DNA of 45,869 nucleotides from a virus, in IMG/VR virus record IMGVR_UViG_2721755987_000001, positions 1-45,869 of that record; one strand, given 5' to 3'. The position numbers and the translations under genes are program-made. Position 1 is the first letter of the stretch, and each line of letters opens with the position of its first letter. The notes under the pieces were generated by a model. The model searched no databases and was not told where the DNA came from. It was given only the letters and a program-made list of their open reading frames with translations. Shown in pieces: positions 493 to 24,534 of this stretch.

Positions 493-765
493 TCAGGGCA
501 TCGCGCTGACTTGGATCGACCCATTGGCCCCACGCACGCCGATCATCACCTCGCCCCGGCGAATCGTGCCGGAGCTGATCAGCTGCACGGGCACGCGCCC
601 GCCGTTGGGTAGCCTGCCCCAGTGCTGCCCATACTCGCAGCCGTCGTAGAGCAGCGTGTACTCGCCTCGCGTGTCGGCTGCGTCTTGGTGGGCGGTGAGC
701 GCCTCCAAGCGTTGGGCACGGCCGGCGGCGGTGGCGAGGCGGGCGCGATCGCTTAGGTTACTCAA
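493..765 (-). CDS. Hypothetical small tail-operon protein (90 aa)
   Basis: Trimmed from track ORF 493..849. TTG start at 765 overlaps the stop of the upstream gene (ATTGAGTAA) and is preceded by GGAGGTG. It is the last gene of the co-directional tail block. Confidence 0.45.
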   Translation of the reverse strand: MSNLSDRARLATAAGRAQRLEALTAHQDAADTRGEYTLLYDGCEYGQHWGRLPNGGRVPVQLISSGTIRRGEVMIGVRGANGSIQVSAMP

Positions 766-2044
766 TCCCCACCTCCAACTGAATATCAAGGGCGATCGCC
801 CCAGTTTCCTCATACGCCTGCACAAATCCCACCACAAGCCAAGATCCACTCGGAATCTCCAGCAGCGGATTGAATATGCCCCCCGCGCCTACCATTCCGT
901 CGCCCGCAGGATTGTAGTACACGTACCGGTTCGGCGTAATGGGATTGCCGTTGAGCAGCACCGACATTCGATCTAATTGAGAGCCAGTGGCAGGCAAATC
1001 GAACTCCGTCACCTCAAACTCGTAGTTCCCTGATCCGGTGTTTGTGTCAAAGCCGATAAGTCGATACGGCTCTAGCCCAATCGCCTCAAACACGTTCGCC
1101 TTGCCGTGCCACGCCCCCTCGATCAGGTTATTCAGCCACCAGAAACGGGTCAGCGGTTGGTTGCTGAGTGCCGCCGCCAGTGCCGCGTCGGGGCTATCGT
1201 TTGCCAAGTAGCTATCGAGGATCAGATTTCTTAAGCCCTCAATCGAGCCAGCAGTCGCCACCGTCGCGGCTGCCCCCAACCGGAATACCACCAGCCGGAT
1301 CTGTGCAGTCGGCGTGCCTGCTGGCTTATTCAGTTGCCCCCTAAGCTTCAGTTGACCGCCTCTTCTATAAACCCGGGCCATCGTCAGCCCGGCGTACCGT
1401 GCCCCCGGCGTGGCGGCACCGTCCATCCCATACTCGCAGACCGGTACGTCAAAACTCAGCCCATGCACAACGGGCCTGGTTTCGTTGGATGCGTACAAAA
1501 AACAGCCCTCGGTGCCAGTGTTCAATCCGGCACCGGCATAGGCATTCTTCGCTGCAAGCATAGCTGGAGTATTGCACTGTAGTCCGCAGATCAGAGGGGG
1601 CGGAATTCGATCTAGCCCGGCCATCTGGTAGTGCGGTTCCAGATTGTAGATGAATAAATCCCCTATCCCCGCTGGCTCGACTAGGTTTCCGCCCAGATTT
1701 TCGTACCACCAAACAGAAATCAGGTTCTCTTCGGAAACTGATTGGCGACGGCGGCGGGTTTGTTGGTTTAGCCGAGTTCCGCAGCCCAGGAACTGAACGG
1801 GTGAGCCGATCGGGGTGGATCCATTGGTGATGTAGCCGCCTCTGGCTTGGTAGGGCTGTCCTCCCAGCGGTTGGACAAGTGGTCGCCCGTTTGCCCAGCC
1901 GGCTGCGACGTGGTGAGTGCTGCTGCACCGGCGATACTGCTCGGCGTTGAGGAGCGATCGCCCTCTTTCCGTCCGTCCGCCTTCGACTAGATCCCGCGCC
2001 CGCTGCTGTAGCAGGTCGTCTTGTGGCTGTTCGCAGCAATCCAT
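758..2044 (-). CDS. Hypothetical tail-fibre/baseplate-region structural protein (428 aa)
   Basis: Long ORF whose start overlaps the upstream gene's stop at 2044. Lies in the tail-distal operon. No motif recognised. Confidence 0.6.
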   Translation of the reverse strand: MDCCEQPQDDLLQQRARDLVEGGRTERGRSLLNAEQYRRCSSTHHVAAGWANGRPLVQPLGGQPYQARGGYITNGSTPIGSPVQFLGCGTRLNQQTRRRRQSVSEENLISVWWYENLGGNLVEPAGIGDLFIYNLEPHYQMAGLDRIPPPLICGLQCNTPAMLAAKNAYAGAGLNTGTEGCFLYASNETRPVVHGLSFDVPVCEYGMDGAATPGARYAGLTMARVYRRGGQLKLRGQLNKPAGTPTAQIRLVVFRLGAAATVATAGSIEGLRNLILDSYLANDSPDAALAAALSNQPLTRFWWLNNLIEGAWHGKANVFEAIGLEPYRLIGFDTNTGSGNYEFEVTEFDLPATGSQLDRMSVLLNGNPITPNRYVYYNPAGDGMVGAGGIFNPLLEIPSGSWLVVGFVQAYEETGAIALDIQLEVGIE

Positions 2045-2745
2045 TAGCGGCTGCCCACCTGAACGGCGATCGCCAGATTTGCCCCAGGCTGCAAGATTCG
2101 GGTGTTGTTGCCAGAACTATCGACCGGAACCTTCTCAAACAGCAGAGCCACGCCGTTGGCAAACCTGCACCGCAGCGATCCAGAAAAGCTGCTCCCTATA
2201 GTCAGCGGCGAACCGCCATCGGTCGCCGAGATGCGGAACCCGTTTGACGAAAGTGACGTGGATGAAACCCAGTAGTAGGTATCTGCAGTGATTCCTGTGG
2301 GATAACTGCTGGCTCCGTCGAAAAACACTCTATCCCCAGCGGCCAAACCGTGCGCCGTCGCGCACTGAAGCACATTGCTGGATATGGACGTAATCAGCCT
2401 GTTACTGTTGGCGTTGCCGTCGGCGATCAGCGCCACGCAATCGTATTGCAGTGGCGTGTTGGGGCTGTTTGGCTTGGTGATCGTCACCAGTTGCGGCCCG
2501 TAGCTCACCAAGTTATCGATCGTGTTTTTGGCGGGTGCTGCGCTGGGTGTCCAGGTGACGCGCTCGTAGCCGTCTGAGTGGTTCACCTCTTTCTTTAGCA
2601 CTGCCATGTGGGTGGCGTTTTGGGTCATCGCGTCGGTGTCGTTGAGCAGCGCGATCCGAAACTTGGCGGGGTCAAATTTGGCGCGAGTGCGGTAGCCAAT
2701 TTCCAAAAGCTCTACCATGCCGTCCAAAAAAGCTGCAAAAGCCAT
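2044..2745 (-). CDS. Hypothetical tail-associated protein (233 aa)
   Basis: ORF coupled at both ends (shared bases at 2745 and 2044) within the tail operon. Beta-rich S/T/G/N composition. Confidence 0.6.
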   Translation of the reverse strand: MAFAAFLDGMVELLEIGYRTRAKFDPAKFRIALLNDTDAMTQNATHMAVLKKEVNHSDGYERVTWTPSAAPAKNTIDNLVSYGPQLVTITKPNSPNTPLQYDCVALIADGNANSNRLITSISSNVLQCATAHGLAAGDRVFFDGASSYPTGITADTYYWVSSTSLSSNGFRISATDGGSPLTIGSSFSGSLRCRFANGVALLFEKVPVDSSGNNTRILQPGANLAIAVQVGSR

Positions 2746-3176
2746 TACGCCTCCAGTTTGCCAACGTCGTCACCTGTTTCAACCCAGCGCAGAGGGATAT
2801 TGTTCTCAGCGACGATCGCATTCCACTCTGCAATCGCCTCCGGATCGATTTCGCCTTCAAATCGCTCCACCAGCGCGTTCCAACTGCCCACCACGAAGCC
2901 CACAAACGGCTCGTCTTTGCCAGCTTCGATTTGGAGGGCGATCGCTGTTTGTGGGTCGATCTGCATGAGCTGTCCCAGCAGCAGCCGGAAGCCAGGATCG
3001 TTTAGCACAGAAATTCTGAAAGCCCCCCAGTTGGGCACGGGTGCAGCGCGACTCAGAAACTCCACCACCGCCGGATCATCCTCGGACACCTCGATCCACT
3101 CCTTAGCTTCGGCGCTGGGCGGGCTGGTGGCGTAGGCAATCACCGTTTCGTTTTCATCCAATTTTATAAAAGGCAT
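2745..3176 (-). CDS. Hypothetical acidic protein (143 aa), possibly a fibre assembly factor
   Basis: Track ORF 2745..3200 trimmed to ATG 3176 (MPFIKLDEN), which lies directly after the stop of the upstream gene at 3179..3181. Confidence 0.5.
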   Translation of the reverse strand: MPFIKLDENETVIAYATSPPSAEAKEWIEVSEDDPAVVEFLSRAAPVPNWGAFRISVLNDPGFRLLLGQLMQIDPQTAIALQIEAGKDEPFVGFVVGSWNALVERFEGEIDPEAIAEWNAIVAENNIPLRWVETGDDVGKLEA

Positions 3177-3178
3177 AA

Positions 3179-5953
3179 CTAGTACAGGGGGTCGATCCAT
3201 CCAAGCGTTTGCAGTCCAATGATTGTTACGGCACTATCAGCCCAGAAACGCACCTGCCTGGATGTGTTGGTGGCGATCGCCTGATTGAGCGGCAGGCGCT
3301 GCACAACCGTGGTGTTTGTTAATCCAGTAAAGTTCCAGGTCGGGATTGAAGTGGCAGACAGGTTTGCGGGGCCAATCCGAATAACAACGCTGTGTTCATT
3401 AGTAATTAATCGGATAATTGGCTCTACTTGCACACCGTTAGGAACTGTAAGCGCTTGCAGGTTTGTATTTGAGGTGGGCACCGACCCGGCGAAATCGTTG
3501 ACCGGACTTTCCAGCGTGAACATTGCCCTGGTTTGCAGAAAATTGCGGATGCTGCTACTGCCATCCGTTAGCACCGACCCAATCCGGCGGCGGCTCAAAT
3601 AGCCGCTGGGAGCATTCGCACCGGTCACGCTCGTATCGAACATATAGTCCACCTGCCCAGCCGAATTCACGATCGCAAAGACGTGATAGGTGGTATTGGC
3701 TGCCAGTGACCCGCCGACGCGCCCGCCGTTGCCCGTACCCGCCACCCAAGTGGCGTTGATCGATTTGGTGATATTGCTGGGGGCGATCGCCACCGCTCGA
3801 ATATTTTCATTGTTGACGGGGTAAACGCAGCGCCCCGCCGTGATGCGGATCTGCGTGCTGCTGACCCATTCTAGGGTCATGCCTTCGGGTGGAATTGTGA
3901 GCGGTGCATCAAGCATGTCGTCTATCAAGCTCCCAGCTTGTTGAATCGTTCCCTGTAGCTCCAAGGCGGGTTGCACCATTCCGGCTGTCTGCACAGTCCC
4001 GCCAAACTCAAACTCTTCTTCGAGCGCATAGCCAGGGGCAAACAGCGTGCCCGTGAGCGCGATCGCCCCTGCAAAATCAAACGATTCGGCGTAGGGGTGA
4101 AACACGTACTCGTCTGGGTCGGTCACGCCGTCGGCGGGTGGCGTGGGTGGTGGGGGCGATCGCCGTTTTACCTGCCCCAGATTGATTGAGTCTCCACCGA
4201 CGACTCCCCGCCGCGCCTCATGCACGAAGCTCAGACCGTCTGTCAGGTGGCGGGTGATCGTGCCGTTTGGCTGAATCCAGTCGATCACCAAGAGGGGCTG
4301 ATAGTTTGCCAGAAATCGCTGCCGCAACGGTAGCACCCAGTTTAATCGCGCCTGCCTGCCATGCAGCAGCGCCCCCTCACGCCGGGCCACTTCCTCGCAG
4401 TGGGCATCGCTCACGGGATAGCGCACCTCGTATTCTCTATCCGCCTCCTGAAAGCTGCTGCCAGCCACAGGCGGGAATCTCGCCTCGCCCTTGTATTGCC
4501 GTTCCTCTCCGTCATTGGGTTCGGCTCTGCGCTCTGGCGAGGGGGGCTGCGTGTCACCGCTGCTGCTGTAGTTGGTGCTGGCTCTGCTGGTTTCACCCGG
4601 CTTGTATTTCCGCACCTTGGAAAATTGAATCCACCCGCGCCCCTGCTTATACCAAAATTGTGTCTCCCACTCGCTTAGCTTCATGCCGTAGGCGCGGGTG
4701 TTGAGGGGCTGATCCGGCGCATAGCCCAGCACGATCGCCGCTGGCTCGTAGGTCTTTTTGTCGATCCGAATTGTTGCGTCGTCAGCGTAGGTGTAGGTTT
4801 CCTCGATTTCCTTAGAGTCGATTAGCCCCGTGTCGCCAGGATTGGTTGCTGGAAACACCACGCCACGCGGTTGCCGCACTCTGCTGCGCCTCCTGCGTAG
4901 CAGTCCTTCCGGCCCGTCGTCGTAGTAGGTGAAATTGTCTTCCTCAGTGGCGCGGATCAGCGTCTTGGAGCCGGGATACTGCTGTGGAAAGAGCCGCCCG
5001 CGTGGTTGCCGCACGTTGGTAAAAGTTGCGATTGTTGATGTGCCGAAACCAGTGAACACCGTGCTGCTGATCTCGCTGGGGTCAAACTCGGCATCGGCTG
5101 CGATGGAGAAAACAGGCAGCGGATTCGTGACCTCCTTCACTTCTGGAGCCACACCCACCGCCCTCACCCGCTCGGCTGGTGTTTCGTCAGGGGCGATCGC
5201 CTGCACCTCCACCTCACCCGTGCCAATTCGCACGCGCAGGTCTGGCGTGTCTGGATCGCTGGGCACCTTCCGGGCGCGGAGCCGCTCTTGATTGTCGATC
5301 CACAGCACGTAGCCCGCGTCCCAGGCCAGTGCCCCCATCGTCGCTACGTAGCTCTGTTCTGTGGGCACGGGGTAATTCAGCGGGTATTCGTCGATCGCAT
5401 CTTGCAGCGCCCCGATGCCCACCTTGGCAGCCAGCCGGTTGATGATCTCTGTGCGCGTGGTCATCTCACCCAGCCTGATTCCGCTTTCGTCGCTGGGTGG
5501 CTGGCGATAATCCTGCAACGCCAGCAGGCAACCGATCTCGATCTCCAGGGTGGGCGCTCTACCAATCGGCGGCGCGGGTGGCTTGAGGATTCGCAGCCGT
5601 CCCCGTGGGTGAGCCACCGTTGCGCCCGTATTGTCTTTGATCTGCACAATCACCCGGCAGCCCCGCGCAAACCGAGCCGGGTTAACCAGTGGATCAAGCG
5701 CTTCGACAAAAGCATCCACTGGGCTAGCCGGGATTACCAGCGTCCCCGTCGTTTTGCTCAGACCGTCGCTGCTCAGGTGCGCGTCTTTCGTGTCGAAGCC
5801 CACCACTGGCACGGCGATCGCCCCGCTGCCATCTGGATAGGCGAGAGACACAGAGATAGGGTTGTTGCCGAGGTCTAGGATCACGCCATAATTTTGGCAC
5901 CGCTGAGCTATTTTTCCCAGAAATTCCCTGAGTGCCTCTTGATACCGCTTCAT
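3179..5953 (-). CDS. Large tail-tip / host-specificity protein (924 aa), putative receptor-binding C-terminus
   Basis: Track ORF 3179..6082 trimmed to ATG 5953 (MKRYQEAL), just after the stop of 5958..6326. Contains a tandem ~34-aa repeat beginning VRQPRG. The C-terminal ~250 aa are rich in N/T/S/G/V, like phage receptor-binding tips. Confidence 0.65.
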   Translation of the reverse strand: MKRYQEALREFLGKIAQRCQNYGVILDLGNNPISVSLAYPDGSGAIAVPVVGFDTKDAHLSSDGLSKTTGTLVIPASPVDAFVEALDPLVNPARFARGCRVIVQIKDNTGATVAHPRGRLRILKPPAPPIGRAPTLEIEIGCLLALQDYRQPPSDESGIRLGEMTTRTEIINRLAAKVGIGALQDAIDEYPLNYPVPTEQSYVATMGALAWDAGYVLWIDNQERLRARKVPSDPDTPDLRVRIGTGEVEVQAIAPDETPAERVRAVGVAPEVKEVTNPLPVFSIAADAEFDPSEISSTVFTGFGTSTIATFTNVRQPRGRLFPQQYPGSKTLIRATEEDNFTYYDDGPEGLLRRRRSRVRQPRGVVFPATNPGDTGLIDSKEIEETYTYADDATIRIDKKTYEPAAIVLGYAPDQPLNTRAYGMKLSEWETQFWYKQGRGWIQFSKVRKYKPGETSRASTNYSSSGDTQPPSPERRAEPNDGEERQYKGEARFPPVAGSSFQEADREYEVRYPVSDAHCEEVARREGALLHGRQARLNWVLPLRQRFLANYQPLLVIDWIQPNGTITRHLTDGLSFVHEARRGVVGGDSINLGQVKRRSPPPPTPPADGVTDPDEYVFHPYAESFDFAGAIALTGTLFAPGYALEEEFEFGGTVQTAGMVQPALELQGTIQQAGSLIDDMLDAPLTIPPEGMTLEWVSSTQIRITAGRCVYPVNNENIRAVAIAPSNITKSINATWVAGTGNGGRVGGSLAANTTYHVFAIVNSAGQVDYMFDTSVTGANAPSGYLSRRRIGSVLTDGSSSIRNFLQTRAMFTLESPVNDFAGSVPTSNTNLQALTVPNGVQVEPIIRLITNEHSVVIRIGPANLSATSIPTWNFTGLTNTTVVQRLPLNQAIATNTSRQVRFWADSAVTIIGLQTLGWIDPLY

Positions 5954-5957
5954 CGAG

Positions 5958-6326
5958 CTAGCGTATGCAAGCCAAGGGGTTTTGCATTTTGTAAGAAACC
6001 ATTGCTGCACAGAAGTCATCAGGCAGGATTTCAGACCCTTCAGGATCGGCTGTGTTCCCCAGCGCCAAAGGCTTGCCAGCAAAGCTTTTCAGGCATTCTG
6101 GAAGGCTGTTGTTCCCCAGGTCGGAAGCACTGATTTTCCGTACCCAGTAAATGATGGATTTGTGATCCTTGCCAATGAACCGACCGAGCCCTCGGTGACT
6201 CATGCCCGATCGACCAGTGCGGCGATCAGTGTAGTAATCAATGCCGTCTTCTACAGCCTTGATAAAGTCACCTGTCATCTGAAAAAACGGGAATATCGAG
6301 AAGTCGTCAAAGTTGTCGCTACTCAT
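5958..6326 (-). CDS. Hypothetical protein (122 aa), possible DNA-binding/antirepressor-like
   Basis: ATG 6326 preceded by AGGAGGTG. It starts 5 nt after the stop of the HTH gene. The segment GMSHRGLGRFIGKDHKSIIYWVRK looks HTH-like. Lies in a low-GC, HIP1-poor island. Confidence 0.5.
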   Translation of the reverse strand: MSSDNFDDFSIFPFFQMTGDFIKAVEDGIDYYTDRRTGRSGMSHRGLGRFIGKDHKSIIYWVRKISASDLGNNSLPECLKSFAGKPLALGNTADPEGSEILPDDFCAAMVSYKMQNPLACIR

Positions 6327-6330
6327 GCTG

Positions 6331-6543
6331 TCACCTCCTGAACGAATACGCCAGAAATTCTCCAGGTTGAGCTTTGTAAGTCTCACAAATGGCGGTTACA
6401 GCTTTTTTGTCTGGATAGACACTTCTGTCCCTAAACAGTCGATAAGCCGTTGACTGAGGAAGCCCTGTGTCTTTCCAGAAGCGGTAGGCAGTGGTTACGC
6501 CCCGCGCTTCTAGGAATTTGTCGAGAGTGTTCATAAGTCCCAT
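6331..6543 (-). CDS. Small XRE/Cro-type helix-turn-helix regulator (70 aa)
   Basis: TAYRFWKDTGLPQSTAYRLFRD plus C-terminal ICETYKAQPGEFL is the typical pattern of short cyanobacterial HTH regulators. Divergent promoter region lies upstream. Confidence 0.65.
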   Translation of the reverse strand: MGLMNTLDKFLEARGVTTAYRFWKDTGLPQSTAYRLFRDRSVYPDKKAVTAICETYKAQPGEFLAYSFRR

Positions 6544-6955: not shown

Positions 6956-7210
6956 ATGGCAATTTTCAACTTTTCAGGAGACGACTCTCGCGGCTCGGGC
7001 CGCAAGTACCGCGCTTTTCAAGAGGAATACACCGCCCCTCGCACACCCCAGAAGCACTGCTCTCGCAGCATGGCGATCGCCTGGGGTCGCCTAGCCGCAA
7101 CGCTCGGCTGGGATCTCGAAATCGACCTCCCCAACGAAGTTGAGCCTGAATATCACGACGTGGCTCGCAAGTTCTATCATCTCACGTTGTCTCGGCGGAG
7201 GGCTGCATAG
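6956..7210 (+). CDS. Hypothetical protein (84 aa)
   Basis: ORF in the co-directional early-type operon. Its stop overlaps the next start by 1 nt. Confidence 0.45.
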   Translation: MAIFNFSGDDSRGSGRKYRAFQEEYTAPRTPQKHCSRSMAIAWGRLAATLGWDLEIDLPNEVEPEYHDVARKFYHLTLSRRRAA

Positions 7211-7416
7211 TGGAGGTGGTGACTCTGGCTAAGCTGGAGTCGCCACCTGCCTCTCAGGTGACGGCTCCAGAATGTGCAGGCTGCTTCTGGTGGGAAGCGT
7301 CGGAGCGGGCGCGGGGCGTAGGATTTTGCTGGTGGCATCATGACCGCGTGATTGGCTGCGACAAGGCGTGCAGCTCGTATTCAAACAGGGAGAATGACCC
7401 ATGCCCAAAATCGTGA
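7210..7416 (+). CDS. Hypothetical Cys/His-rich small protein (68 aa), possible zinc binder
   Basis: GTG start. Contains CAGC...C..HH...C...C. Overlaps the next gene by 16 nt. Confidence 0.4.
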   Translation: MEVVTLAKLESPPASQVTAPECAGCFWWEASERARGVGFCWWHHDRVIGCDKACSSYSNRENDPCPKS

Positions 7417-7883
7417 CCCCAATCGTGTGCCGGGTGCAGGTGCTCGGCAAGGTGAAGCCCTCTGAGTACACAGAAGCGGGCTATCGCTCGGTGCTGTTTG
7501 TGGAGGCTGAATACTTTGGCAAGCCGCAAGAGGAAGTGCCGGAGTCCGCTAGGATCTGGCAATCCTTTGATGCTGACGATGAGGCGCTGCGATCGCTCCA
7601 GAAAGGGACGTGGGTGGAGCTGCTACCCGTCGGTGAAAAGAACGGCAAACCTCGCTATGGACTAAAGCTGATGTCTCTACCTACCCAGCCACAGACAGCC
7701 CAAACTCAGACGGCTGGGCTAACACCGGCTCAGAAGCGGGCGATCGCCGCCAAGGTTGAGCAAGATGCTGCCCTACTCAAGTTCTGCTACGACCAGGCGC
7801 GTCAAAAATTCGCGGGTGTGATAGACGATCCAGAGTCGTTGCGAGCACTGGCCACGACGCTGTTTATTCAAGCCCTTCGCTAG
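7401..7883 (+). CDS. Hypothetical protein (160 aa)
   Basis: ATG preceded by GGGAGA. N-terminal beta-rich half, Q/T/P linker, helical C-terminus. No motif recognised. Confidence 0.55.
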   Translation: MPKIVTPIVCRVQVLGKVKPSEYTEAGYRSVLFVEAEYFGKPQEEVPESARIWQSFDADDEALRSLQKGTWVELLPVGEKNGKPRYGLKLMSLPTQPQTAQTQTAGLTPAQKRAIAAKVEQDAALLKFCYDQARQKFAGVIDDPESLRALATTLFIQALR

Positions 7884-8972: not shown

Positions 8973-9722
8973 TTACGCGCTGGCGGCCAGCCGCATTTTT
9001 CCTAGCGGAATCAGCGGGATAGCCCAGGTCGGCACGCGCCCGGAGTCGATCAAGCCGATCAGCGTGCGGGCGATCGCCGGGTCGATTTCCTCCACCGCCG
9101 CCTGCTGATTGAGCATTCGCTCGAACGGGTTGAAGTGGGCAGGCTCCAGATCCTTCACGCCCTGAGCCGCTAGCGAGTAGCAGCCAAGCAAAGCGGTGGG
9201 GATGGCGGCGCGGTGTGCCCGCTCCAGCTCCAGCCGGGTGACAGCAGCGATCGCCTGCTCAATCAGCAGCAGCGGGCAACTAGCGAAGCGAGCTGCGCTG
9301 AAGCGCGGCTCATGAGGGAAGTGCAGTTGCAGAGTCCAGTAGACCTCTGCCCAGTCGGTGGGCTTGCTGGGTTCGGTGTCTGCCTGCTCCGGCTCTGATT
9401 CGTTCAGGTCTTTCCAGCGGCGGCGCTCTCCCAGGGCAAAATCGGCAATCTGAGCAATCTCAGCAATCGAGAAACTCCCCGATACCTTCTCCAGTGTCCA
9501 GTTTGGGTCATGCCGCGAGATGAGGATCAGCGTAGCAATCACAGGATTCAGGTGCATCGCTGCGATGATCGTCGCTTGATCGCCAGTAACCTCCAGCAGA
9601 TCTGCCTGCCCAGCTAGCAGCTCCTCAAAGGCGATCGCCTCCTGCACCGTTGGGCAGCCGTAGCGAGGCAGCGAAACAGCCCCCACCGTGAAAAACTCAG
9701 GCGCACAATCAAACGGCAGCAT
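8973..9722 (-). CDS. Hypothetical protein in the tail-assembly-chaperone position (249 aa)
   Basis: Second gene after the tail-tube gene. Its start overlaps the upstream ORF by 14 nt. Acidic central linker. Confidence 0.5.
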   Translation of the reverse strand: MLPFDCAPEFFTVGAVSLPRYGCPTVQEAIAFEELLAGQADLLEVTGDQATIIAAMHLNPVIATLILISRHDPNWTLEKVSGSFSIAEIAQIADFALGERRRWKDLNESEPEQADTEPSKPTDWAEVYWTLQLHFPHEPRFSAARFASCPLLLIEQAIAAVTRLELERAHRAAIPTALLGCYSLAAQGVKDLEPAHFNPFERMLNQQAAVEEIDPAIARTLIGLIDSGRVPTWAIPLIPLGKMRLAASA

Positions 9723-9927
9723 CGACCCGCCTCAACTCGACCTTGTAACTGAGGCTGCTGGGAGCGCCATCAACCTCGACCCAATAGCGATTATTCTGGG
9801 CATCCCAAAGCTCGTGCCTGCCCGCCACGAACCCAGCATCCAACACCAGCAGCCCGGCAACTATGAAATCGCCCGCCACTTTGCAGTGGCAGGCGAAGAC
9901 AGTGTGACCAGTGAGTGATGCAATCAT
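9709..9927 (-). CDS. Hypothetical small protein (72 aa) downstream of the tail-tube gene
   Basis: Starts 4 nt after the tail-tube gene's stop and is coupled to the next ORF. Confidence 0.45.
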   Translation of the reverse strand: MIASLTGHTVFACHCKVAGDFIVAGLLVLDAGFVAGRHELWDAQNNRYWVEVDGAPSSLSYKVELRRVDAAV

Positions 9928-9930
9928 CCC

Positions 9931-10860
9931 CTATTTCCGAGCGGGAGTGTCGATAGGCTCGCCGCGGCCGTTGAAGGAGGTGCTGAAGGTGATGTTGCCA
10001 TCGCTGGGGTTATCCTTGCTGATGCCAATCACCTGGCAAAGCCCCTCAAACTGTTCGCCGTAGGTGTAGCCAGCGGGTGCAGTGTCGCGCTTCACGACGT
10101 AGCCGAACACGCCTTTGACAGCATTGCGGGCGGCGTAGCGCAGGCGGTAGTAGCCAGGCTCACCCGGCAATACTACTGCATCATAGTTCATCGTCCAGTT
10201 GGCGCTGGTGGCCGAGCCGTTTGCGTAGCCCGCGCCGTCGCCGAAGATCGTCACGGTTTCTTCATCGGTGCTGATTTCTTCGTTGGCGCTGGTTCCTCCT
10301 TGCAGCAGCAGCAGCCCTCGGTGCAGCGCCTTCGAGTTATTGGCGATCGCCTCATCCAGGGGCAATACGCTCACTGTCGTCGCACCGGCTGCGGCATCGG
10401 CAGAGGTGTAGGCGACCTGAAAAGCACCAGAAAAAACGTGCCCAACAGAGCTATTGGCGATTGCCTGCTTAAGCGGCCTGACGGTAATCGAGGTTGCACT
10501 GGAAGCCGCCGCCGCCGCGACTTCGACATCAAATTCGTAGCCCGCGAACTTGATCTTGGCTCCAGCGGCGATCGCCGAAGTGAGCGCGGTCACGGTTAGG
10601 GTGGTTGCACCCTTTGCAGCCGCCGAGCTGAGCGTCACCGCTGTCACGCCAGCGGGCGGATAAAACAGCAGTGCCGACCCAGCAGGCAGCGGATTGGCGA
10701 GCGCGGTCACGGTCAAGGTTGCCGCTCCGGCAGAAGCCGCCGAGCCTAGAGTCACTAGAACATCGGGAGGTGGTGGAGTCGGCTCTTGATTTACGAGATC
10801 AGGGTGAAGTATGCCGAAAAGCACCTGGGTTCCCGATCCACTAAGGACTTGTCTAGGCAT
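9931..10860 (-). CDS. Putative major tail (tube) protein with four N-terminal tandem repeats (309 aa)
   Basis: The C-terminal half (GGTSANEEISTDEETVTIFGD...GEQFEGLCQVIGISKDNPSDGNITFSTSFNGRGEP) follows the gpV/TP901-type tail-tube pattern. The N-terminus has four copies of a GATTLTVTAL..IAAG..I.F type unit. Confidence 0.65.
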   Translation of the reverse strand: MPRQVLSGSGTQVLFGILHPDLVNQEPTPPPPDVLVTLGSAASAGAATLTVTALANPLPAGSALLFYPPAGVTAVTLSSAAAKGATTLTVTALTSAIAAGAKIKFAGYEFDVEVAAAAASSATSITVRPLKQAIANSSVGHVFSGAFQVAYTSADAAAGATTVSVLPLDEAIANNSKALHRGLLLLQGGTSANEEISTDEETVTIFGDGAGYANGSATSANWTMNYDAVVLPGEPGYYRLRYAARNAVKGVFGYVVKRDTAPAGYTYGEQFEGLCQVIGISKDNPSDGNITFSTSFNGRGEPIDTPARK

Positions 10861-10899
10861 AAGCTCTCTCAGAATTCTGAAGAGAGTGTTCCTACTGAA

Positions 10900-11034
10900 T
10901 CAGATAGGGCAGGAATTGCAGCACTCCGAGTACCGCTGACAGTCGCAGGGCGGATTCTTGGCGCGCCCGACAGCAATCGGGGTGAGAGCGATCGCCACAG
11001 CAAACAGTAGTGCCAAAGGTAAACGGCTAAGCAT
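10900..11034 (-). CDS. Small secreted cysteine-rich peptide (44 aa; below track cutoff)
   Basis: Own translation: MLSRLPLALLFAVAIALTPIAVGRAKNPPCDCQRYSECCNSCPI. Signal-peptide-like N-terminus and five Cys in the last 16 residues. The ATG lies 14 nt after the recombinase stop. Confidence 0.4.
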   Translation of the reverse strand: MLSRLPLALLFAVAIALTPIAVGRAKNPPCDCQRYSECCNSCPI

Positions 11035-11048
11035 AGTGGGGGGGATTG

Positions 11049-11879
11049 CTAAAGGTCGAGATAGCGGCTACTGCTGTCCTCTGGGTTACTTTCCAGATAA
11101 ACATTCGTAACAGCGATTGAAGAGTGCCCCAAACTGTCTCGGACTAGGTGCAGCGGAGCGCCGCCCGCCAGTGAGTGCTGCGCGTGAGCGTGTCGGAGCC
11201 AGTGGGCCGAAATTTTGGGGTCTAGCCCAGCGGCGATTACGGCGGCTTTGATCAGCCGGTGAACGTCATAGCGATTCAGGGGGCGATCGCCCTGCCAGAA
11301 AACTGGAGCAGTGCCAGGGCGATCGCCCCTCAGCTCTTGCAACTCTACCCAAACTCCGGCGGGCACAAGCACCACCCGTTCCTTGCCCCCCTTGCCCAGA
11401 ATTCGCACCTGCACCGCGCCGCTGTCGCGCTCGTGAAAATCTGCCCAGATCAGCCCGCACGCCTCACTCACCCGCACTCCCGTGGCGTACATGAAGTGGA
11501 TGAGGGGGTGCGCTGTCACCAGCTTACGCACCTGATCCTTGCGTAGGATTCGCCCGGCCAGGCTGTTTTTCATGCGCTTCGCTCGCAGCGCAGCGGCCAC
11601 GTTGAAGCGAACATATTGCAGCTTGGCTGCAAAACTAAACAGTGATTTCAGCGCGTTAATTTTGTTGCGCTTGGTCGCGTCTGCCAGTTGCCGTTCTGCC
11701 AAGGCAGTGCTGTAGGCTTGCAAGTCCTCCAGCCGCACCTCAGCCAGCGGCTTGCTCACGAACTGGCGAAACTCCGCGACGGTGCGGCGATAGTTTGCCT
11801 GAGTCCCAGCGGGCCGATCATGGAGCCACAGATCAATCAGGCGATCATCAGTGTCCACCCGCGATAATTCGCCGCTCAT
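11049..11879 (-). CDS. Second tyrosine recombinase, XerC/XerD-like (276 aa)
   Basis: SAM-like N-terminal domain, box I ATGVRVSEACGL, HWLRHAHAQH (H-x-x-R) and LGHSSIAVTNVYLE (catalytic Tyr). Confidence 0.85.
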   Translation of the reverse strand: MSGELSRVDTDDRLIDLWLHDRPAGTQANYRRTVAEFRQFVSKPLAEVRLEDLQAYSTALAERQLADATKRNKINALKSLFSFAAKLQYVRFNVAAALRAKRMKNSLAGRILRKDQVRKLVTAHPLIHFMYATGVRVSEACGLIWADFHERDSGAVQVRILGKGGKERVVLVPAGVWVELQELRGDRPGTAPVFWQGDRPLNRYDVHRLIKAAVIAAGLDPKISAHWLRHAHAQHSLAGGAPLHLVRDSLGHSSIAVTNVYLESNPEDSSSRYLDL

Positions 11880-11992
11880 CCTTCATCTCTCAGCCCTTAC
11901 CCTTTTCTGGGTTCCCCACACAAAACTGCACTTTTGTGCAGCGCAGTATGGCAAGGGCAAAAAACTAGGATCAGGGGAGGAGGGATTTCAAG

Positions 11993-12479: not shown

Positions 12480-13235
12480 GTGGGCATAGAGAAGGTTTGG
12501 GGGGAATATCGCGCAAAGGCGGTAAGGGTCGCCAATGCGCGTGAGTTTGAGGAATATCGAAAAAAGCAAACCATCGCTTTGCGAAACCGGTTGGCAATTC
12601 TGAATGACGGGCTGGCCTGCAAAGAGGCGCATCGCCAGGCGAACTGCTGCGACGTGCCGTATGAGGACTTGGTGCAATACGGGCGGATTGGACTGCTGAA
12701 GGCAATCGAGCGCTATGACCCGGCTGAGGGTAGCGCCTTCAGCTCGTTTGCAGTGCCCTACATCCGGGGCGAAATCCAGCACTTCCTGCGCGATCATGCC
12801 TGGGATCTGGGCAAGGTGCCGCGTCGGGCAATCGAAACGGCCAGCCATGTGAAACGGCTGAAGCGCAGGGCGATCGCCGCTGGCAGACTGGATGTGGATG
12901 AGCAGCAGGTGGCTCGCTCGGTCGGCATTTCCGGGGCGAAGTGGCAGCAAGTTGCTGAGGTCACAGCTCGCAAGCCGGTGATCGACCTGGATGAGGTCGT
13001 GCATGTGGCAGCGGAGCATGACGAGGCGAAGGCGCTGCATGGTGAGGTGCGAGCGGCTGTGGCCAAGCTGCCCAATCCCTATCGCGCCGCCATTGTCGAG
13101 CACTATTTCAAAGGGCTGAGCGAAGAGGCGATCGCCGAACAGAGCCACGTTGAGGTCGCCCAGGTGCAGCGCTGGCTGGCTGAAGGTTTGCGGCGGCTGC
13201 AAGCGGGGCATCTTGGGATTGGGAGGCTGGGATAA
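12480..13235 (+). CDS. Sigma-70 family RNA polymerase sigma factor (group 3 / SigF-like)
   Basis: Region 2: DLVQYGRIGLLKAIERYDPAEGSAFSSFAVPYIRGEIQHFLRD. Region 4 HTH: LPNPYRAAIVEHYFKGLSEEAIAEQSHVEVAQVQRWLAEGLRRL. The GTG start is uncertain. Confidence 0.85.
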   Translation: MGIEKVWGEYRAKAVRVANAREFEEYRKKQTIALRNRLAILNDGLACKEAHRQANCCDVPYEDLVQYGRIGLLKAIERYDPAEGSAFSSFAVPYIRGEIQHFLRDHAWDLGKVPRRAIETASHVKRLKRRAIAAGRLDVDEQQVARSVGISGAKWQQVAEVTARKPVIDLDEVVHVAAEHDEAKALHGEVRAAVAKLPNPYRAAIVEHYFKGLSEEAIAEQSHVEVAQVQRWLAEGLRRLQAGHLGIGRLG

Positions 13236-14471: not shown

Positions 14472-14747
14472 ATGAACAAAGGTGAATTAGTCGATCAAAT
14501 TTCTGAAGCCACCAACTTCACCAAGAAAGATGTGGATGCCGTCCTTAGCGCGGCGATCGCCAAAATCATGGATGCCGTCGCGGCTGGCGAGAGAGTCACT
14601 CTAGTCGGGTTTGGGGTGTTTGAGCCACGCAACCGTAAAGAGCGAGAGGGGCGCAATCCCAAAACAGGCGAAGCAATAAAAATCCCTGCGACCCGTGTGC
14701 CGACCTTCTCGGCAGGGAAGAGTTTCAAGGATATGGTTAGCGGTTAA
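14472..14747 (+). CDS. hup: DNA-binding protein HU
   Basis: MNKGELVDQI..., VTLVGFGVFEPRNRKEREGRNPKTGEAIKIPA and FSAGKSFKD form the canonical HU/IHF fold signature. Length is 91 aa. Confidence 0.92.
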   Translation: MNKGELVDQISEATNFTKKDVDAVLSAAIAKIMDAVAAGERVTLVGFGVFEPRNRKEREGRNPKTGEAIKIPATRVPTFSAGKSFKDMVSG

Positions 14748-15601: not shown

Positions 15602-16075
15602 ATGGCGGATCGGGTTGACCCCAAACGGGCAGAAGCGAAACGAATTTATTTAGAGAAGGGCTGGACGCACGCGGCGATCGCCGAGCATTTTGGCGTGAGC
15701 ACTCGCACCGTCGAGCGGTGGGCCTCGGCTGATGGCTGGGGGGCGCTGAGACAATCCAAGGTGGTGCAGATGGGCAATCGCCCCAAGGCTGCCACGCCTC
15801 GCGAGCGACCCAGCCGCCGTGTCAGACGCAGTGCCGATCTGGATGAGCTGGAGGTGGTGGAGAGCGCGATCGCCGATCTCAGCGCTGCCCTGGCGAGTGC
15901 AGAGGATGTTCGCTCGATGGGCGGGCTGGCAGGCGGGCTGGTGAGGCTGCTGGAGTATCGCCGCAAAATTTGCCCACCCAGCGCTCACGAACTGGCTGAG
16001 CAGGTGCTTGCCTTGGGCATCAGCCCTAGCGAATTCGCGAAGGAGCTGCGGGAGAAGTGGCAGCTCAGAGCCTAA
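15602..16075 (+). CDS. terS: Terminase small subunit
   Basis: N-terminal HTH (WTHAAIAEHFGVSTRTVERWASADGW). Lies immediately upstream of and overlapping the large terminase gene. Confidence 0.7.
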   Translation: MADRVDPKRAEAKRIYLEKGWTHAAIAEHFGVSTRTVERWASADGWGALRQSKVVQMGNRPKAATPRERPSRRVRRSADLDELEVVESAIADLSAALASAEDVRSMGGLAGGLVRLLEYRRKICPPSAHELAEQVLALGISPSEFAKELREKWQLRA

Positions 16076-17595
16076 AGCAAGAATTGATTGAGGAACTGGA
16101 AAGCGCCCTGGAAATCGGGCAAGCGGCGATCGCCGAGTATGCCGCCTATGCTCGCGATCCGGTTGGATTCATTCAGCAGGTGCTGAGTGTCAAGCTGACG
16201 GCTGAGCAGCAGGCGATCGCGCTGTCTGTGCGCGACAACCGAGAGACGAACGTGCAGGCCTCTCACGGCTGCGGCAAGACCTTCCTGGCAGCCTGCCTAG
16301 TGCTGTGGTGGGTGCTGGCGGTTCGTGGTTTGTGCATCACCACAGCACCCACCAAGCGCCAAGTGATTGAGCTGCTGTGGGGCGAAATCCGCAAGGCTCA
16401 CGGGCGGCTGAATCTACCGGGCGATCGCGGGCAAACTTTTCTGCGACTGACTGAGGAAGCTCGCGCCTTTGGCTTTACGGCCTCAGACAACAACTCGAAT
16501 GCCTTCCAGGGCGTGCACCACCCGCGCCTGCTGGTGATTGAGGATGAGGCGTGCGGGATCAGTGCCGACATCGATGAGGGTGCCAGCTCCTGTGCAACCG
16601 GCGCAGAAAACCGCTTCCTGAGAATCGGCAACCCAATCAGCACGGGTGGGCCATTCGAGAAAGCCTGTAGACGCCAGCACATTCGTATCCCGGCCTGGTC
16701 TCACCCAAACGTTGCTTGGGCGTATCAGCAGGGGATGCATCGGCTGAAGCCAGAGGTGGCCGAGGCAATCCTTGACCAGCAGGGCAAGGTGCGGCCTCAG
16801 AGCGAGTGGCCCGATTGGTGCCCTCGCGATCGCATCCCCGGTGCTATCTCAATTTCTTGGATTGAGGAAGCCCGCGCCAAGTACGGCGAAGGCTCAGCCT
16901 ACTGGCAGTCGCGCGTTGAGGGCTTCTTCCCTGAAGACAGCACCCAAAGCATCGTGCCTCGTTCCTGGTGGCTGGCCGCGCGCCGCCGCTACGACGAAGA
17001 TCCTGAGTTTTGGGATAAGCAGGCGGAGATTCATCAGAGCCGCTACGGCTTGGACGTTGCCGACGGCAGCGACGATCACGCCTTGGCTCGCTGGCAGGGC
17101 CCGGTGCTCTACAGCGCGATCGCCATCCCCACCAAAGGCGATCAGGAAGATGTGCCCCGCGCTGCTGGGCTAGCGATCGCCGCACTGAAGGATTTTCCTG
17201 GATCAATCCACGTCGATCGCGGTGGCTGCGGCGCTGGGGCACAGGGGCTGCTGAAAGCGGAGGGCTACAAGTCGCACGGTGTCCATTGGGGTGAAGCACC
17301 TCGCGACCCAGCCCAGTTCCTCAACTCGAAGGCTGAGGACTACTGGACACTGCGGGAGGCATTCCGCAACAACGAGGTGGCGATCGCCCCACTGGGGGAG
17401 TACGAGGAAATGGCGATGGAGGATCTTGCTGGAATTTACTGGGAGCAAACCAGCGTTGGCAAGACCCGCATCGAAGACAAGGCAAAAACTCGCAAGCGGC
17501 TGCATCGATCGCCCAACTTAGGCGATGCGATCGCACTTGGTTTCAGACAGCCCGTTCGCCACCACGTAAAGCGCTCTGGGTTGCCCCTCTACTAG
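16057..17595 (+). CDS. terL: Terminase large subunit
   Basis: Walker A QASHGCGKTF, Walker B LLVIEDEACGI and a downstream IGNP motif. 512 aa, located before the portal gene. Confidence 0.85.
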   Translation: MAAQSLKQELIEELESALEIGQAAIAEYAAYARDPVGFIQQVLSVKLTAEQQAIALSVRDNRETNVQASHGCGKTFLAACLVLWWVLAVRGLCITTAPTKRQVIELLWGEIRKAHGRLNLPGDRGQTFLRLTEEARAFGFTASDNNSNAFQGVHHPRLLVIEDEACGISADIDEGASSCATGAENRFLRIGNPISTGGPFEKACRRQHIRIPAWSHPNVAWAYQQGMHRLKPEVAEAILDQQGKVRPQSEWPDWCPRDRIPGAISISWIEEARAKYGEGSAYWQSRVEGFFPEDSTQSIVPRSWWLAARRRYDEDPEFWDKQAEIHQSRYGLDVADGSDDHALARWQGPVLYSAIAIPTKGDQEDVPRAAGLAIAALKDFPGSIHVDRGGCGAGAQGLLKAEGYKSHGVHWGEAPRDPAQFLNSKAEDYWTLREAFRNNEVAIAPLGEYEEMAMEDLAGIYWEQTSVGKTRIEDKAKTRKRLHRSPNLGDAIALGFRQPVRHHVKRSGLPLY

Positions 17596-17628
17596 TAGGG
17601 AACGCTACGCCAGAGTTGAAGAGTTGCC

Positions 17629-19143
17629 GTGGCGTATTCCTACATCTCTGAGCGGGCCAAACGAACTCCACTGAGGGAGCCGGCCAGCGTCGCACCCAAA
17701 ACCGAACAGAGTTCCCCCGTCGCCGCTCCCTGCATGGTGTATCAGCAGATGCAAGGCTATTGGGCAGTGATTGACTCGGTGAAAGCTGGCACGCAAGCAA
17801 TCCGCGCCAATGGCGAGGCGTATTTGCCCCTGGAGCCTTTTGAAAAGCCTGAAGCCTACGATCGCCGGCTGAAGAAAACGACATTGGCCCCTTGGTATAC
17901 GCGCTTGGTGCGCGGGCTGGTGGGTATGGTGCTGCGTAAGCCGATCGCCCTCGACGTATCAGAACGGGTGAAGGCTGACCTAGACAACGTGAACCTGCTG
18001 GGCGATGACCTCAACAGCTTCGCTCGTGAGGTGTTTGAGGCAGCAATCGACTATGGCTATACCGGGCTGTTTGTCGATTACACCCGCGTTGAGGGGGCAC
18101 AGACCTTGGCGGATGAGCGGGCGATCGCCCCGCGTCCCTATTGGATTCACTACACCGCACCCGAAATCATTGGTTTTCGCTACAGCATCATCGGCAACCG
18201 GCGCGTCTTAACCCAGCTCCGGCTGCTGCTGCACGACATTCAGCCCGATGGCGAGTTTGGCGAGCGGGAGGTTGAGCAGGTCAAGGTTTACGACCTGACA
18301 GAGAACGGCGTGCAGTGGCGGCTGTTCGAGCAGAGCGATGGCAACTGGGAGCAGGTTGATCAAGGCCCGCTGTCGCTGCCTCTGATCCCATTTGCTTTCG
18401 TCTACACGAACAAGAAAAAATCGCTGATCGTGCAGCCGCCCATGCTGGAGGTTGCCTACCTGAATATCAAACACTTCCAGCTCAGCGCTGACCTGGATCA
18501 TGCGCTGCACATTGCTGCCAATCCAAAATTTTGCCTCTTCGGTTATGACCCCGAAAATGGCGACGTGGTGGCGGGCGTGGATGAGGCGCTAATTTTCGAG
18601 AATGCGGCTGGGCGTGCTGAGTGGGTTGCGCCGCCGCCAACCTCTTTCGATGCGCTAGAGCGCCGCATTGACAAAATTGAGCAGCAGATGGCGATACTGG
18701 GGCTTTCCACTCTGGTAAGCCCAAAAAACGTGGCCGAGAGCGCTGAGGCCAAGAAGCTCGATCGCACGCAAGGCGACAGCATCATGGCCGTCGTCGCGCA
18801 GGGGCTGCAAGATGCCTTAGACCTATGCCTGGAGTTTCACGCGGCGTACCTGGGAGAGGCTCCAGGTACGTGCCAGGTGAATCGTGATTACGATGTGGCT
18901 CAACTCGATCCACAGGCGATCGCCGCTTACAGCAATCTGCACAGCAAGAGCCAAATCAGCCTGGAAACGCTGCTGGAGCTGCTGAAACGCGGCGAAGTTT
19001 TCGATGATGAGTTTTCGATCGAGGAAGAGCTGAAGCGGCTAGAGGCGGAATTTCGGCGGGAAGCAGCCGCCGTGACTCAGGAAGGGCTGGAAGCCGCCAT
19101 TGAAAATCCTGAGTCCGGAACTCCGGACGAAGCGGAGGGCTAA
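17629..19143 (+). CDS. Portal protein
   Basis: 504 aa, between terL and the MuF-like gene. The N-terminal pattern YQQMQGYW...GEAYLP...AYDRRLKKTTLAPWYTRLVRGLVGMVLRKP resembles DUF4055-type portals. Confidence 0.75.
   Translation: MAYSYISERAKRTPLREPASVAPKTEQSSPVAAPCMVYQQMQGYWAVIDSVKAGTQAIRANGEAYLPLEPFEKPEAYDRRLKKTTLAPWYTRLVRGLVGMVLRKPIALDVSERVKADLDNVNLLGDDLNSFAREVFEAAIDYGYTGLFVDYTRVEGAQTLADERAIAPRPYWIHYTAPEIIGFRYSIIGNRRVLTQLRLLLHDIQPDGEFGEREVEQVKVYDLTENGVQWRLFEQSDGNWEQVDQGPLSLPLIPFAFVYTNKKKSLIVQPPMLEVAYLNIKHFQLSADLDHALHIAANPKFCLFGYDPENGDVVAGVDEALIFENAAGRAEWVAPPPTSFDALERRIDKIEQQMAILGLSTLVSPKNVAESAEAKKLDRTQGDSIMAVVAQGLQDALDLCLEFHAAYLGEAPGTCQVNRDYDVAQLDPQAIAAYSNLHSKSQISLETLLELLKRGEVFDDEFSIEEELKRLEAEFRREAAAVTQEGLEAAIENPESGTPDEAEG
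19112..19128. repeat. Palindrome-family copy 2 (inside the portal 3' end)
   Basis: AGTCCGGAACTCCGGAC, 17 of 18 positions matching copy 1. Encodes ESGTPDE. Confidence 0.7.
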
Positions 19144-19146
19144 ACT

Positions 19147-21287: not shown

Positions 21288-21300
21288 GAATCGACATGGG

Positions 21301-21325
21301 AACAAAAGGGGTGACTCCTTTTGTT
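21301..21325 (+). terminator. Rho-independent terminator-like hairpin
   Basis: AACAAAAGG-GGTGACT-CCTTTTGTT followed by TGTT. Confidence 0.55.
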
Positions 21326-21332
21326 TGTTCTG

Positions 21333-21959: not shown

Positions 21960-21974
21960 GGATAGTTTTGTTCT

Positions 21975-22211: not shown

Positions 22212-22283
22212 GGCAATCGGAGCAGGCGATCGCCCCTGACAACAGGCAAGCCATTGGCTTGGGAACTATCGGGGTGGAATTGA

Positions 22284-22988: not shown

Positions 22989-22994
22989 AGCGCC

Positions 22995-23038: not shown

Positions 23039-23042
23039 GATC

Positions 23043-24510: not shown

Positions 24511-24534
24511 GAGCGAGTTGTTGAGTCCGCATGG

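Follow-up and report, generated by a model that had tools for sequence, protein, structure and literature searches.

The window analysed here is a stretch of viral DNA of 45,869 nucleotides (nt), positions 1 to 45,869 of the IMG/VR record IMGVR_UViG_2721755987_000001, and carries a prophage in which the tail module of a siphovirus is cut at gene boundaries into three cassettes, located on both strands and spread over 32 kb. Comparison with related loci indicates that this three-block layout is probably the genuine inherited gene order of a small lineage of temperate siphoviruses from filamentous cyanobacteria of the Leptolyngbya type, rather than one orientation of an invertible segment. According to the history proposed here, three autonomous tail cassettes would have moved in at least three old rearrangements that broke the DNA exactly between genes; the relatives would share a part of this history, with the detachment of the tip genes so far peculiar to the window. 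The scattered order probably works since the cassettes need no read-through from the head operon; dispersed promoters with the motif RGGAAC, together with a phage sigma factor, would turn on the late genes in trans. A small tyrosine recombinase standing upstream of the tube gene would be a conserved accessory gene, downstream of which the tube cassette landed in this lineage, and would resolve multimers of the phage genome by acting between molecules. A preliminary description of the window, made from the sequence alone, had considered either a fixed rearrangement or a recombinase that drives a large invertible segment or another site-specific reaction such as multimer resolution; the comparative data support the first of these.

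Tail cassettes of the window and of related loci

The tail genes of phages of the lambda, HK97 and SPP1 type follow the order terminator, tube, G/GT chaperones, tape measure, distal tail and tip. The three cassettes of the window hold the same roles, in the same internal order within each cassette. The first (cassette c, minus strand) consists of a gene for a tube-like major tail protein (9931..10860) and two genes in the chaperone position, of 72 amino acids (aa; 9709..9927) and 249 aa (8973..9722). The second (cassette F, plus strand) consists of the tape measure gene (27915..32162, 1415 aa; Pfam PhageMin_Tail 4e-30, PHROG tape measure 1e-46) and a 161-aa gene after it (32159..32644). Upstream of it on the same strand are a Neck1/tail-completion-like gene (27035..27391; PHROG tail-completion/Neck1 family) and a 140-aa gene conserved in the connector position (27388..27810). 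The 104 nt between the connector and the tape measure (27811-27914) contain no open reading frame (ORF); this junction is occupied by an 18-nt palindrome (AGTCCGGAATTCCGGACT, 27809-27826, plus strand) and a GC hairpin with a T-run resembling an intrinsic terminator (27838-27863, plus strand). The connector end at 27810, the tape measure start at 27915 and the location of the tube-like and chaperone-position genes on the opposite strand, away from the tape measure, are thus as the preliminary description had given them.

The third block (cassette a, 493..6082, minus strand) holds the tail-tip and fibre genes, with ORFs at 3179..6082 (967 aa), 2745..3200, 2044..2745, 758..2044 and 493..849. These are 72-82% identical to the genes that follow the 161-aa gene in six related loci (L001-L006) and keep the same internal order; they have no match in PHROG or Pfam, and their function is assigned by position only. 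Their placement beside attL had been described before with a start at 5953, which is one of three possible starts of the 967-aa ORF (6082, 5953 or ~5885), homology to the relatives beginning at ~5888. In the window only the 161-aa gene directly follows the tape measure, and a strong bidirectional terminator-like hairpin (32664..32695) stands just after it, where the tip genes normally begin. Tube, chaperone-position genes and tape measure, which are contiguous and co-oriented in L001-L006, are neither in the window.

The relatives comprise 29 loci, labelled L001 onward, among them JGI and Logan contigs, IMG/VR prophage predictions and a contig of a metagenome-assembled genome (MAG). The genes of L001-L006 lie on a single strand in the order M15 peptidase, 149, 114 and 140 aa, tube (311 aa), 72 and 253 aa, tape measure (1412 aa), 161, ~890, 142, 232 and 424 aa. 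The window proteins are 57-82% identical to their counterparts there, with values of 65% for the tube, 77-80% for the tape measure and 71% for the 161-aa gene, whose protein yielded a single cluster in a homologue search. This order bears out the earlier proposal that the tube and chaperone cassette belongs between connector and tape measure. DNA homology to these canonical relatives ends at three points, namely where the ~250-aa gene stops and the tape measure begins, at the stop codon of the 161-aa gene and at the start of the ~900-aa gene, so that every breakpoint falls exactly between genes. Since the orthologues stand in canonical order in L001-L006 and the homology ends at gene borders, the tail module of the window has truly been cut into three cassettes.

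At least six arrangements of the same orthologous cassettes were found, of which the canonical order of L001-L006 is one. In L007 (tube 71% identical to that of the window) the tube block is followed by an inverted block of tape measure and tip genes. In L013/L014 (Leptolyngbyales MAG, Logan sample; recombinase 68% and tube 54% identical) the order is recombinase, tube, 72, 245, a small reverse gene, a tape measure of 579 aa, 161 and 890, and in L021 and L026-L028 (recombinase 72%, tube 60%) it is recombinase, tube, 72 and 257, followed by convergent genes. A fifth arrangement is seen in L024 and L029 (tube 76%), where the tube block is divergent from the sigma gene and the 140-aa connector gene runs directly into the tape measure, followed by the 161-aa gene and the tip genes. 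The three separate blocks of the window constitute the sixth.

The closest relative (tube 81% and recombinase 71% identical) is split over the contigs L016/L017 and L012. L016 and L017 both break off 27 nt past the recombinase, in a perfect palindrome of 34 nt that is a terminator (TAAGAAAACCCACCAGTACTGGTGGGTTTTCTTA; L016 10822-10855, L017 2337-2370), and the same palindrome opens L012 (1-30). These contig ends were rejected as structural variation, the palindrome being longer than the assembler k-mer and the tube contig opening with it, and most probably the assembler itself broke the sequence at this perfect palindrome. When joined, the contigs give portal, terL and terS, then the sigma gene, divergent from recombinase, tube, 72 and 247, which is the window arrangement. 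Perfect palindromes that exceed the k-mer can, more generally, mimic structural breakpoints in such assemblies.

Two of the three unusual junctions of the window, recombinase-tube and connector-tape measure, thereby recur in independent samples; a tip block moved to the attL side was seen in none of the relatives. Sharing of the order by relatives, which the preliminary description had named as evidence against its reading, is largely seen, piece by piece, the tip block excepted. As the connector-tape measure junction is common to L024 and L029, it appears to be ancestral to the lineage and not a switch state. A breadth-first search over signed block orders required at least three reversals between the window and the canonical order. 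No inverted or direct repeats of at least 11 nt link the junctions in the window, except the cyanobacterial palindrome HIP1 and the 18-nt palindrome; the preliminary description had found no convincing inverted target sites by eye.

Two of these arrangements carry further peculiarities. In L024 (1-12000) and L029 (2500-10200) the sigma gene, a 251-aa gene and two small ORFs lead directly into the connector, tape measure and tip genes, terminase, portal and capsid genes being missing in between, and a transposase and a primase-helicase lie after the tube block. These loci may represent a head-less, tail-only (tailocin-like) element or a further rearranged phage. The tape measure of L013 (3401-5140) corresponds to window residues 875-1415 only, with the small reverse gene and an AGGAAC of its own upstream, and points either to a naturally far shorter tail or to a truncated tape measure gene.

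The tube-like protein has an N-terminal beta-repeat region and a C-terminal tube-like domain (~residues 181-309). It matches PHROG 1407 'major tail protein' at 6.6e-7 and PHROG 38654 at 1e-5 (residues 184-307). Phage_tail_2 was the only Pfam family that recurred for the C-terminal domain, in five of the seven family members and weakly (best E 0.003), at 13.9 bits against a cut-off of 23.8. Profile searches of the PDB with tube alignments returned noise only and no PDB sequence match. The C-terminal domain was modelled by AlphaFold at a predicted local distance difference test (pLDDT) value of ~30, both in the full-length protein and alone; for this reason the fold searches, which gave low template modelling scores with one 'major tail protein' among the top viral matches, were discarded as evidence. 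In L001-L007 the tube orthologues fill the slot between the connector genes and the chaperone-position and tape measure genes. Together, these weak but consistent profile matches and the gene position suggest that 9931..10860 encodes the tail tube. Homologues are rare, with six close clusters among 5.8 billion proteins; no match was obtained by tblastn against GenBank phages and no relative in a scan of IMG/VR, and among genome contigs the only match was the Leptolyngbyales MAG contig.

In comparison with the canonical module, the tube of the window carries an N-terminal beta-repeat extension of ~180 aa. Residues ~33-180 form four tandem repeats of ~37 aa (consensus AAxxGATTLTVTAL..PLPAGS.L.F), predicted as a beta-repeat domain at pLDDT 75-93, and this extension may be a decoration or adhesion add-on of the tail tube. 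Orthologues of the 72- and 249-aa genes (47-69% identity) always follow the tube gene and adjoin the tape measure start in L001-L006. The two genes overlap by 14 nt, with the second ORF in the +1 frame, and they have neither a family match nor a slippery heptamer discernible by eye. They differ in this respect from the canonical G/GT pair, in which overlapping ORFs are joined by a programmed -1 frameshift at a slippery site, and 'chaperone' is used for them here as a positional term.

A candidate late promoter and a second tyrosine recombinase

A phage sigma factor of the Sigma70 r2/r4 type (12480..13235, plus strand; PHROG 351 at 2e-26), whose homologues carry Pfam Sigma70_r2/r4_2, is encoded divergently from the recombinase-tube block. 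All 11 tube loci, whatever their arrangement, carry a motif (GT)RGGAAC 27-38 nt before the tube start codon, usually with a terminator before it and a small leader palindrome after it. In the window this motif takes the form AGGAAC (10888..10893, minus strand), 33 nt upstream of the tube ATG and followed by the leader palindrome. GGGAAC is found 37 nt upstream of the recombinase ATG (11911-11916, minus strand), and further copies of RGGAAC precede genes on the plus strand at 14018, 15568, 17598, 21298, 22261 and 24567. Among the 36 copies in the window, eight lie within 60 nt upstream of a gene start on the coding strand, where 1.4 would be expected; five of these eight (recombinase, tube, gene 14051, terS and portal) are 31-37 nt from the called start and the others 23, 23 and 50 nt. 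A ninth copy, GGGAAC at 6111..6116 (minus strand), precedes the 967-aa tip ORF, 34 nt upstream of its TTG start at 6082, a spacing like that of tube, recombinase, terS and portal. In L013 and L029, whose tape measure opens a unit of its own, the motif precedes this gene too; it is absent from that position in the canonical L003.

GGAAC is the classic -35 element of sigma factors of the extracytoplasmic function type. RGGAAC is thus a candidate late promoter element for the phage sigma factor, and we infer that the late genes belong to one regulon, activated in trans through promoters scattered over the genome; the order of the cassettes would then be only weakly constrained. An operon headed by the recombinase, as proposed in the preliminary description, could not be established, the tube gene having its own conserved promoter-like motif.

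The recombinase (11049..11879, minus strand) is a full-length XerD-like tyrosine recombinase of 276 aa without an arm-binding domain, in keeping with the earlier description of it as XerC/D-like. It matches Pfam Phage_integrase at 2e-25 and carries a SAM-like N domain (Pfam Phage_int_SAM_4/1); its nearest solved structure is XerD (1a0p, 4.5e-19), and its translation shows the complete set of catalytic residues (R, K, HxxR, H and Y). Against the NCBIfam models it scores 133.6 bits for XerD (cut-off 329.6; 8.6e-39), 124 for XerA (220) and 43.7 for XerS (267; 1.5e-11). By these scores it is a Xer-like protein outside the curated XerC, XerD, XerS and XerA equivalogs. Orthologues with 57-72% identity are present in many cyanobacterial prophages, and the family, with 547 matches at E <1e-30 that are almost all cyanobacterial, is found between the early genes and the packaging module of many temperate phages. 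A gene for an HU-like protein often follows it directly (L018-L020, L022). The sigma gene is also near, lying upstream in L018 and L022, downstream in L020 and divergently in the window and L016. In L020 the recombinase lies ~5 kb inside a prophage on a 149-kb Leptolyngbya contig.

An imperfect palindrome of 10-6-10 structure was detected 30-70 nt upstream of all 11 cyanobacterial homologues and of those in the phages phiKM1 and phiAP1. In the window this candidate core site or operator reads CTGCACAAAA-GTGCAG-TTTTGTGTGG (11916..11941, minus strand). Its counterparts are CTGCACGAAA-GTATAG-TTTTGTGCAG in L013 (373-398) and L021, TTGCACGAAA-CTCTAG-TTTTGCGCAA in L016 (9943-9968), TTCAACATAA-CTGCAC-TTATGTTGAA in L010 (492-517), AGGGACATAA-CTGTAG-TTATGCCCCG in phiKM1 (L030, ~5896-5921) and a perfect 11-6-11 palindrome, CCGCAAGATAA-GTGTAG-TTATCTTGCGG, in phiAP1 (L032, ~12333-12360); in L020 and L022 the site is at 9976-10001 and 9919-9944. 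The arms co-vary pairwise, and the central 6 bp stay near GTRYAG. The candidate site thus has the two inverted arms and 6-8 bp centre of Xer-type sites. Its 6-6-6 core occurs once per recombinase-bearing locus, always upstream of the gene and never at the cassette junctions, and is single-copy in the window. The right arm abuts the GGGAAC motif at 11911-11916, and for this reason the recombinase may be autoregulated through its site. The phiAP1 site has in addition a direct copy of its left arm ~38 bp upstream.

In phage P1, whose prophage is a plasmid, Cre/loxP circularises the genome and resolves dimers. The window resembles it in having a phage tyrosine recombinase with one nearby inverted-repeat site per genome, but the two show no detectable sequence relationship, and the window phage integrates in a tRNA gene via a separate integrase. 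A further likeness is offered by the XerS/difSL pair of streptococci and lactococci, whose recombinase gene and site are genetically linked (PMC2731167, PMC2965235). Both pairs consist of a single Xer-type recombinase without an arm-binding domain and an imperfect palindrome with a 6-bp centre beside the gene, whereas the putative module of the window is phage-borne, does not lie at a chromosome terminus and has 10-bp arms. The proteins PhiAP1_290 (Acetobacter phage phiAP1) and PhiKM1_290 (Komagataeibacter phage phiKM1) are 40% identical to the window recombinase over the full length, are encoded between the early genes and terS/terL (in phiAP1 ~2 kb upstream of terL, the same position) and have the upstream palindrome with a GTGTAG or CTGTAG spacer. 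Unlike the window, both phages keep the canonical structural order, with no tail gene after the recombinase. phiAP1 is infectious and integrates in tRNA-Ser via a separate 412-aa integrase, and it was this att-side integrase, not the function of the small recombinase, that was studied (PMC8566455). With one site per genome, the most likely role of the recombinase is intermolecular, in the resolution of phage genome multimers or monomerisation, a task that Cre/loxP and XerS/difSL also perform. The suggestion of multimer resolution or another site-specific reaction in the preliminary description fits the single conserved dif/lox-like site beside the gene.

The slot between recombinase and tube contains in the window a 44-aa ORF (10900..11034, minus strand) whose translation has a signal-peptide-like N terminus and a Cys-rich tail, CxC...CC..C, in keeping with the tiny secreted peptide gene noted earlier. 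It has no counterpart in the relatives, where the slot is variable (empty in L013 and L021, with other small ORFs in L012), and it may be a moron.

Alternative explanations of the gene order

The scattered order could represent the rearrangement debris of a decaying prophage whose genes are no longer used together, as the lack of head genes between sigma and connector in L024/L029, the transposase beside their tube block and the 579-aa tape measure of L013 might suggest. This is an unlikely explanation for the window, where every structural ORF has the full length of its orthologues and the cassettes have clean borders; the att sites, an integrase, a replication gene with iterons and the gene sets for packaging, head, connector and tail are there as well. 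The prophage is complete, with an identical 21-nt sequence AACCGTACAACAGATTAGCAA as attL core at 1-21 and as direct repeat at 45849-45869. The latter, the attR core, lies in the 3' half of a tRNA gene (45814..45869, minus strand) of which the T-arm GGTTCGAATCC and a long variable arm are readable; ARAGORN predicted no complete tRNA in the window because the 5' half falls outside it. The main integrase (44619..45731, minus strand; 370 aa; PHROG integrase 8e-14) adjoins attR, next to the att/tRNA end. The window thus has the direct att repeats, one of them in a tRNA 3' end beside the integrase, of a tRNA-integrating prophage. Furthermore, the sub-arrangements persist across lineages at 54-81% protein identity, implying selection.

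The recombinase itself was rejected as the integrase of the prophage, since its site is intact inside integrated elements (window, L020). That it acts as a second integrase for an alternative attachment site, with the upstream palindrome as attP core, is distinctly doubtful. Its simple Xer-like architecture with an adjacent core-type site would suit such a role, its homologues lie near the ends of the IMG/VR prophage predictions L009-L011, and the L010 site resembles the XerD arm of Escherichia coli dif, as do those of IMEX (integrative mobile elements exploiting Xer). The site is nevertheless intact and internal in the integrated prophages of the window, L020 and phiAP1, all three of which use another integrase and a tRNA att site.

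Another reading is that recombinase and site form a hinge that re-oriented the tail cassettes over evolution, or does so rarely today via secondary sites. It would explain why the recombinase stands at junctions in at least four lineages and in variable orientation to the sigma gene and the packaging module. This reading is very unlikely; if it were true, the phage family would be a natural case of recombinase-driven shuffling of structural operons.

An active inversion, in which the recombinase flips one or more large segments and one isomer places tube and chaperones upstream of the tape measure, is still harder to credit. The recombinase keeps all its catalytic residues, marks the edge of a block in the window as well as in L013 and L021, differs in orientation relative to the sigma/terS module among relatives and has weak NCBIfam matches to tyrosine-type DNA invertases (5e-8), the Xer families scoring far better (1e-39). 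Site-specific inversion systems such as the Rci shufflon, FimB/E and the Gin/Cin tail-fibre switches likewise invite comparison, given a recombinase beside phage tail genes and a block orientation that varies among relatives. However, such systems have paired inverted sites flanking the segment, and the blocks here are whole operons, not C-terminal fibre exons or promoters. As the 45.9-kb prophage contains the site only once and no locus has it at a junction, intramolecular inversion is not supportable, and the junctions are not linked by inverted repeats either. Differing block orientations were seen only between distinct lineages; L024 and L029 have a fixed connector-tape measure junction that takes in neither tube nor chaperone genes, and the phiAP1 homologue coexists with a normal gene order. 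The preliminary description had proposed a single inversion between 8.9 and 27.85 kb. It would indeed bring the tube upstream of the tape measure, but would not restore the canonical order, the head module being flipped and the tip still detached; a large invertible segment is therefore not supported, given also the shared junctions and the three reversals needed.

A contig mis-joined at repeats or palindromes, the true order being canonical, is an equally improbable source of the layout. The window contains 127 copies of HIP1 (GCGATCGC) and several long palindromes, palindromes visibly break Logan contigs of the relatives, and two junctions (after the 161-aa gene and at the tip block beside attL) occur in the window only. 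The recombinase-tube and connector-tape measure junctions, on the other hand, were seen independently in other samples and with other assemblers, and misassembly of junctions common to the relatives is unlikely. The breaks lie between genes and outside common repeats, accompanied by terminators, promoter-like motifs and new genes upstream, and the two ends of the window are consistent in their att repeats and tRNA half.

Five copies of the 18-nt perfect palindrome AGTCCGGAAYTCCGGACT are present in the window (7909-7926, 19112-19129, 27809-27826, 38309-38326 and 43492-43509), against 0.03 expected by chance, with unrelated flanks. An exchange between the copies at 7909 and 27809, which would invert 7.9-27.8 kb and place the tube ~1 kb upstream of the tape measure, can hardly be entertained: although these two copies are intergenic, leave the genes intact in either isomer and lie at the connector-tape measure junction and ~1 kb past the tube block, near the end points of the proposed inversion, the arms are only 6-7 bp with flanks not conserved, two copies are inside ORFs (portal C terminus and a 540-aa gene), three are followed by hairpins or terminators, which makes a host-origin or transcriptional element equally likely, the motif is unlike the conserved recombinase-adjacent site, and it is present in none of the 29 related loci in spite of the common junctions. 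It is tentatively regarded as a host-type or transcriptional element.

Several points weigh against an inherited three-block order expressed in trans. The gene orders were read from assembled contigs and stay compatible with low-frequency isomers; two junctions, behind the 161-aa gene and between tip block and attL, come from this assembly alone. The lack of the expected head genes in L024/L029 means that some members of the lineage may be defective. The recombinase adjoins rearrangement junctions in several lineages and could have helped to make them. The tube fold is putative, its predicted domain having the low pLDDT value given above. The tape measure of the window is an exception to the motif pattern, with only GAGAAC at -19, behind a terminator; no -10 element could be aligned downstream of RGGAAC, and the spacing of the motif implies almost leaderless mRNAs, which makes 'promoter' an inferred term.

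Gene map of the prophage and significance of the arrangement

The remaining genes were mapped by PHROG and Pfam scans of the window proteins. The packaging, head and connector module (15602..27810, plus strand; PHROG matches) follows the sigma factor (start 12480) and contains terS (15602), terL (16057), portal (17629), a MuF-like gene (19147), a nuclease (22284), scaffold (23812), major capsid (24617) and an M15 peptidase (26616). The last (26616-27035, plus strand) is endolysin-like (PHROG 894 at 2.5e-47) and lies among the connector genes, at the identical position in all relatives and an odd place for a lysis enzyme; it may be a virion-associated lysin. An HU-like DNA-binding protein gene (14472..14747, plus strand) is 59-64% identical to the Pfam Bac_DNA_binding genes directly after the recombinase in L020 and L022. 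Two small genes of 84 and 160 aa (6956..7883, plus strand) are convergent with the tube block, and their homologues are likewise convergent, just downstream of the ~250-aa gene, in L012, L013, L021, L026 and L027. A 142-aa ORF (5958..6386, minus strand) and a 70-aa Cro/C1-type helix-turn-helix gene (6331..6543, minus strand; Pfam HTH_26 2.6e-9) now lie upstream of the tip block and have no counterparts at that position in the relatives. An O-like replication gene (40615..41640) contains five tandem 21-bp iterons (AGTCGATCAACTCAGTTGATC, 40865-40990; three exact and two partial end copies), and this region is likely to be the origin of replication. The stretch from attL to the last tail gene contains several short repeats, direct and inverted (172-222, 174-207, 239/471 and 420-441), including AAAGCCCGCGACAATCAA, AGTCCAGGTTT and TTGTGACAGTTG, each present twice; they may be arm-type binding sites of the 370-aa integrase. 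The sole relative with a named genome is the Leptolyngbyales MAG.

Neither this phage family nor the small recombinase turned up in literature searches, and as far as these showed the recombinase-plus-site pair is previously undescribed. The XerD-like recombinase and its GTRYAG-spacer site extend from cyanobacterial phages to those of acetic acid bacteria, and the protein is routinely labelled 'integrase' though another integrase carries out the integration. If it is a true genome-multimer resolvase, it would constitute a compact recombinase-plus-site pair that is directly testable and might serve as a tool.

The order tube, chaperones, tape measure and tip is among the most dependable landmarks for the annotation of siphoviruses and the recognition of prophages, and annotation based on synteny can miss the tube and chaperone genes in genomes such as the one described here. 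The interest of the family lies in the repeated reshuffling of cassettes at clean gene borders, with the motif upstream of the tube kept in every arrangement and a sigma gene close by. It thus offers a natural test of whether assembly itself requires co-linear tail genes or whether co-linearity serves co-transcription alone.

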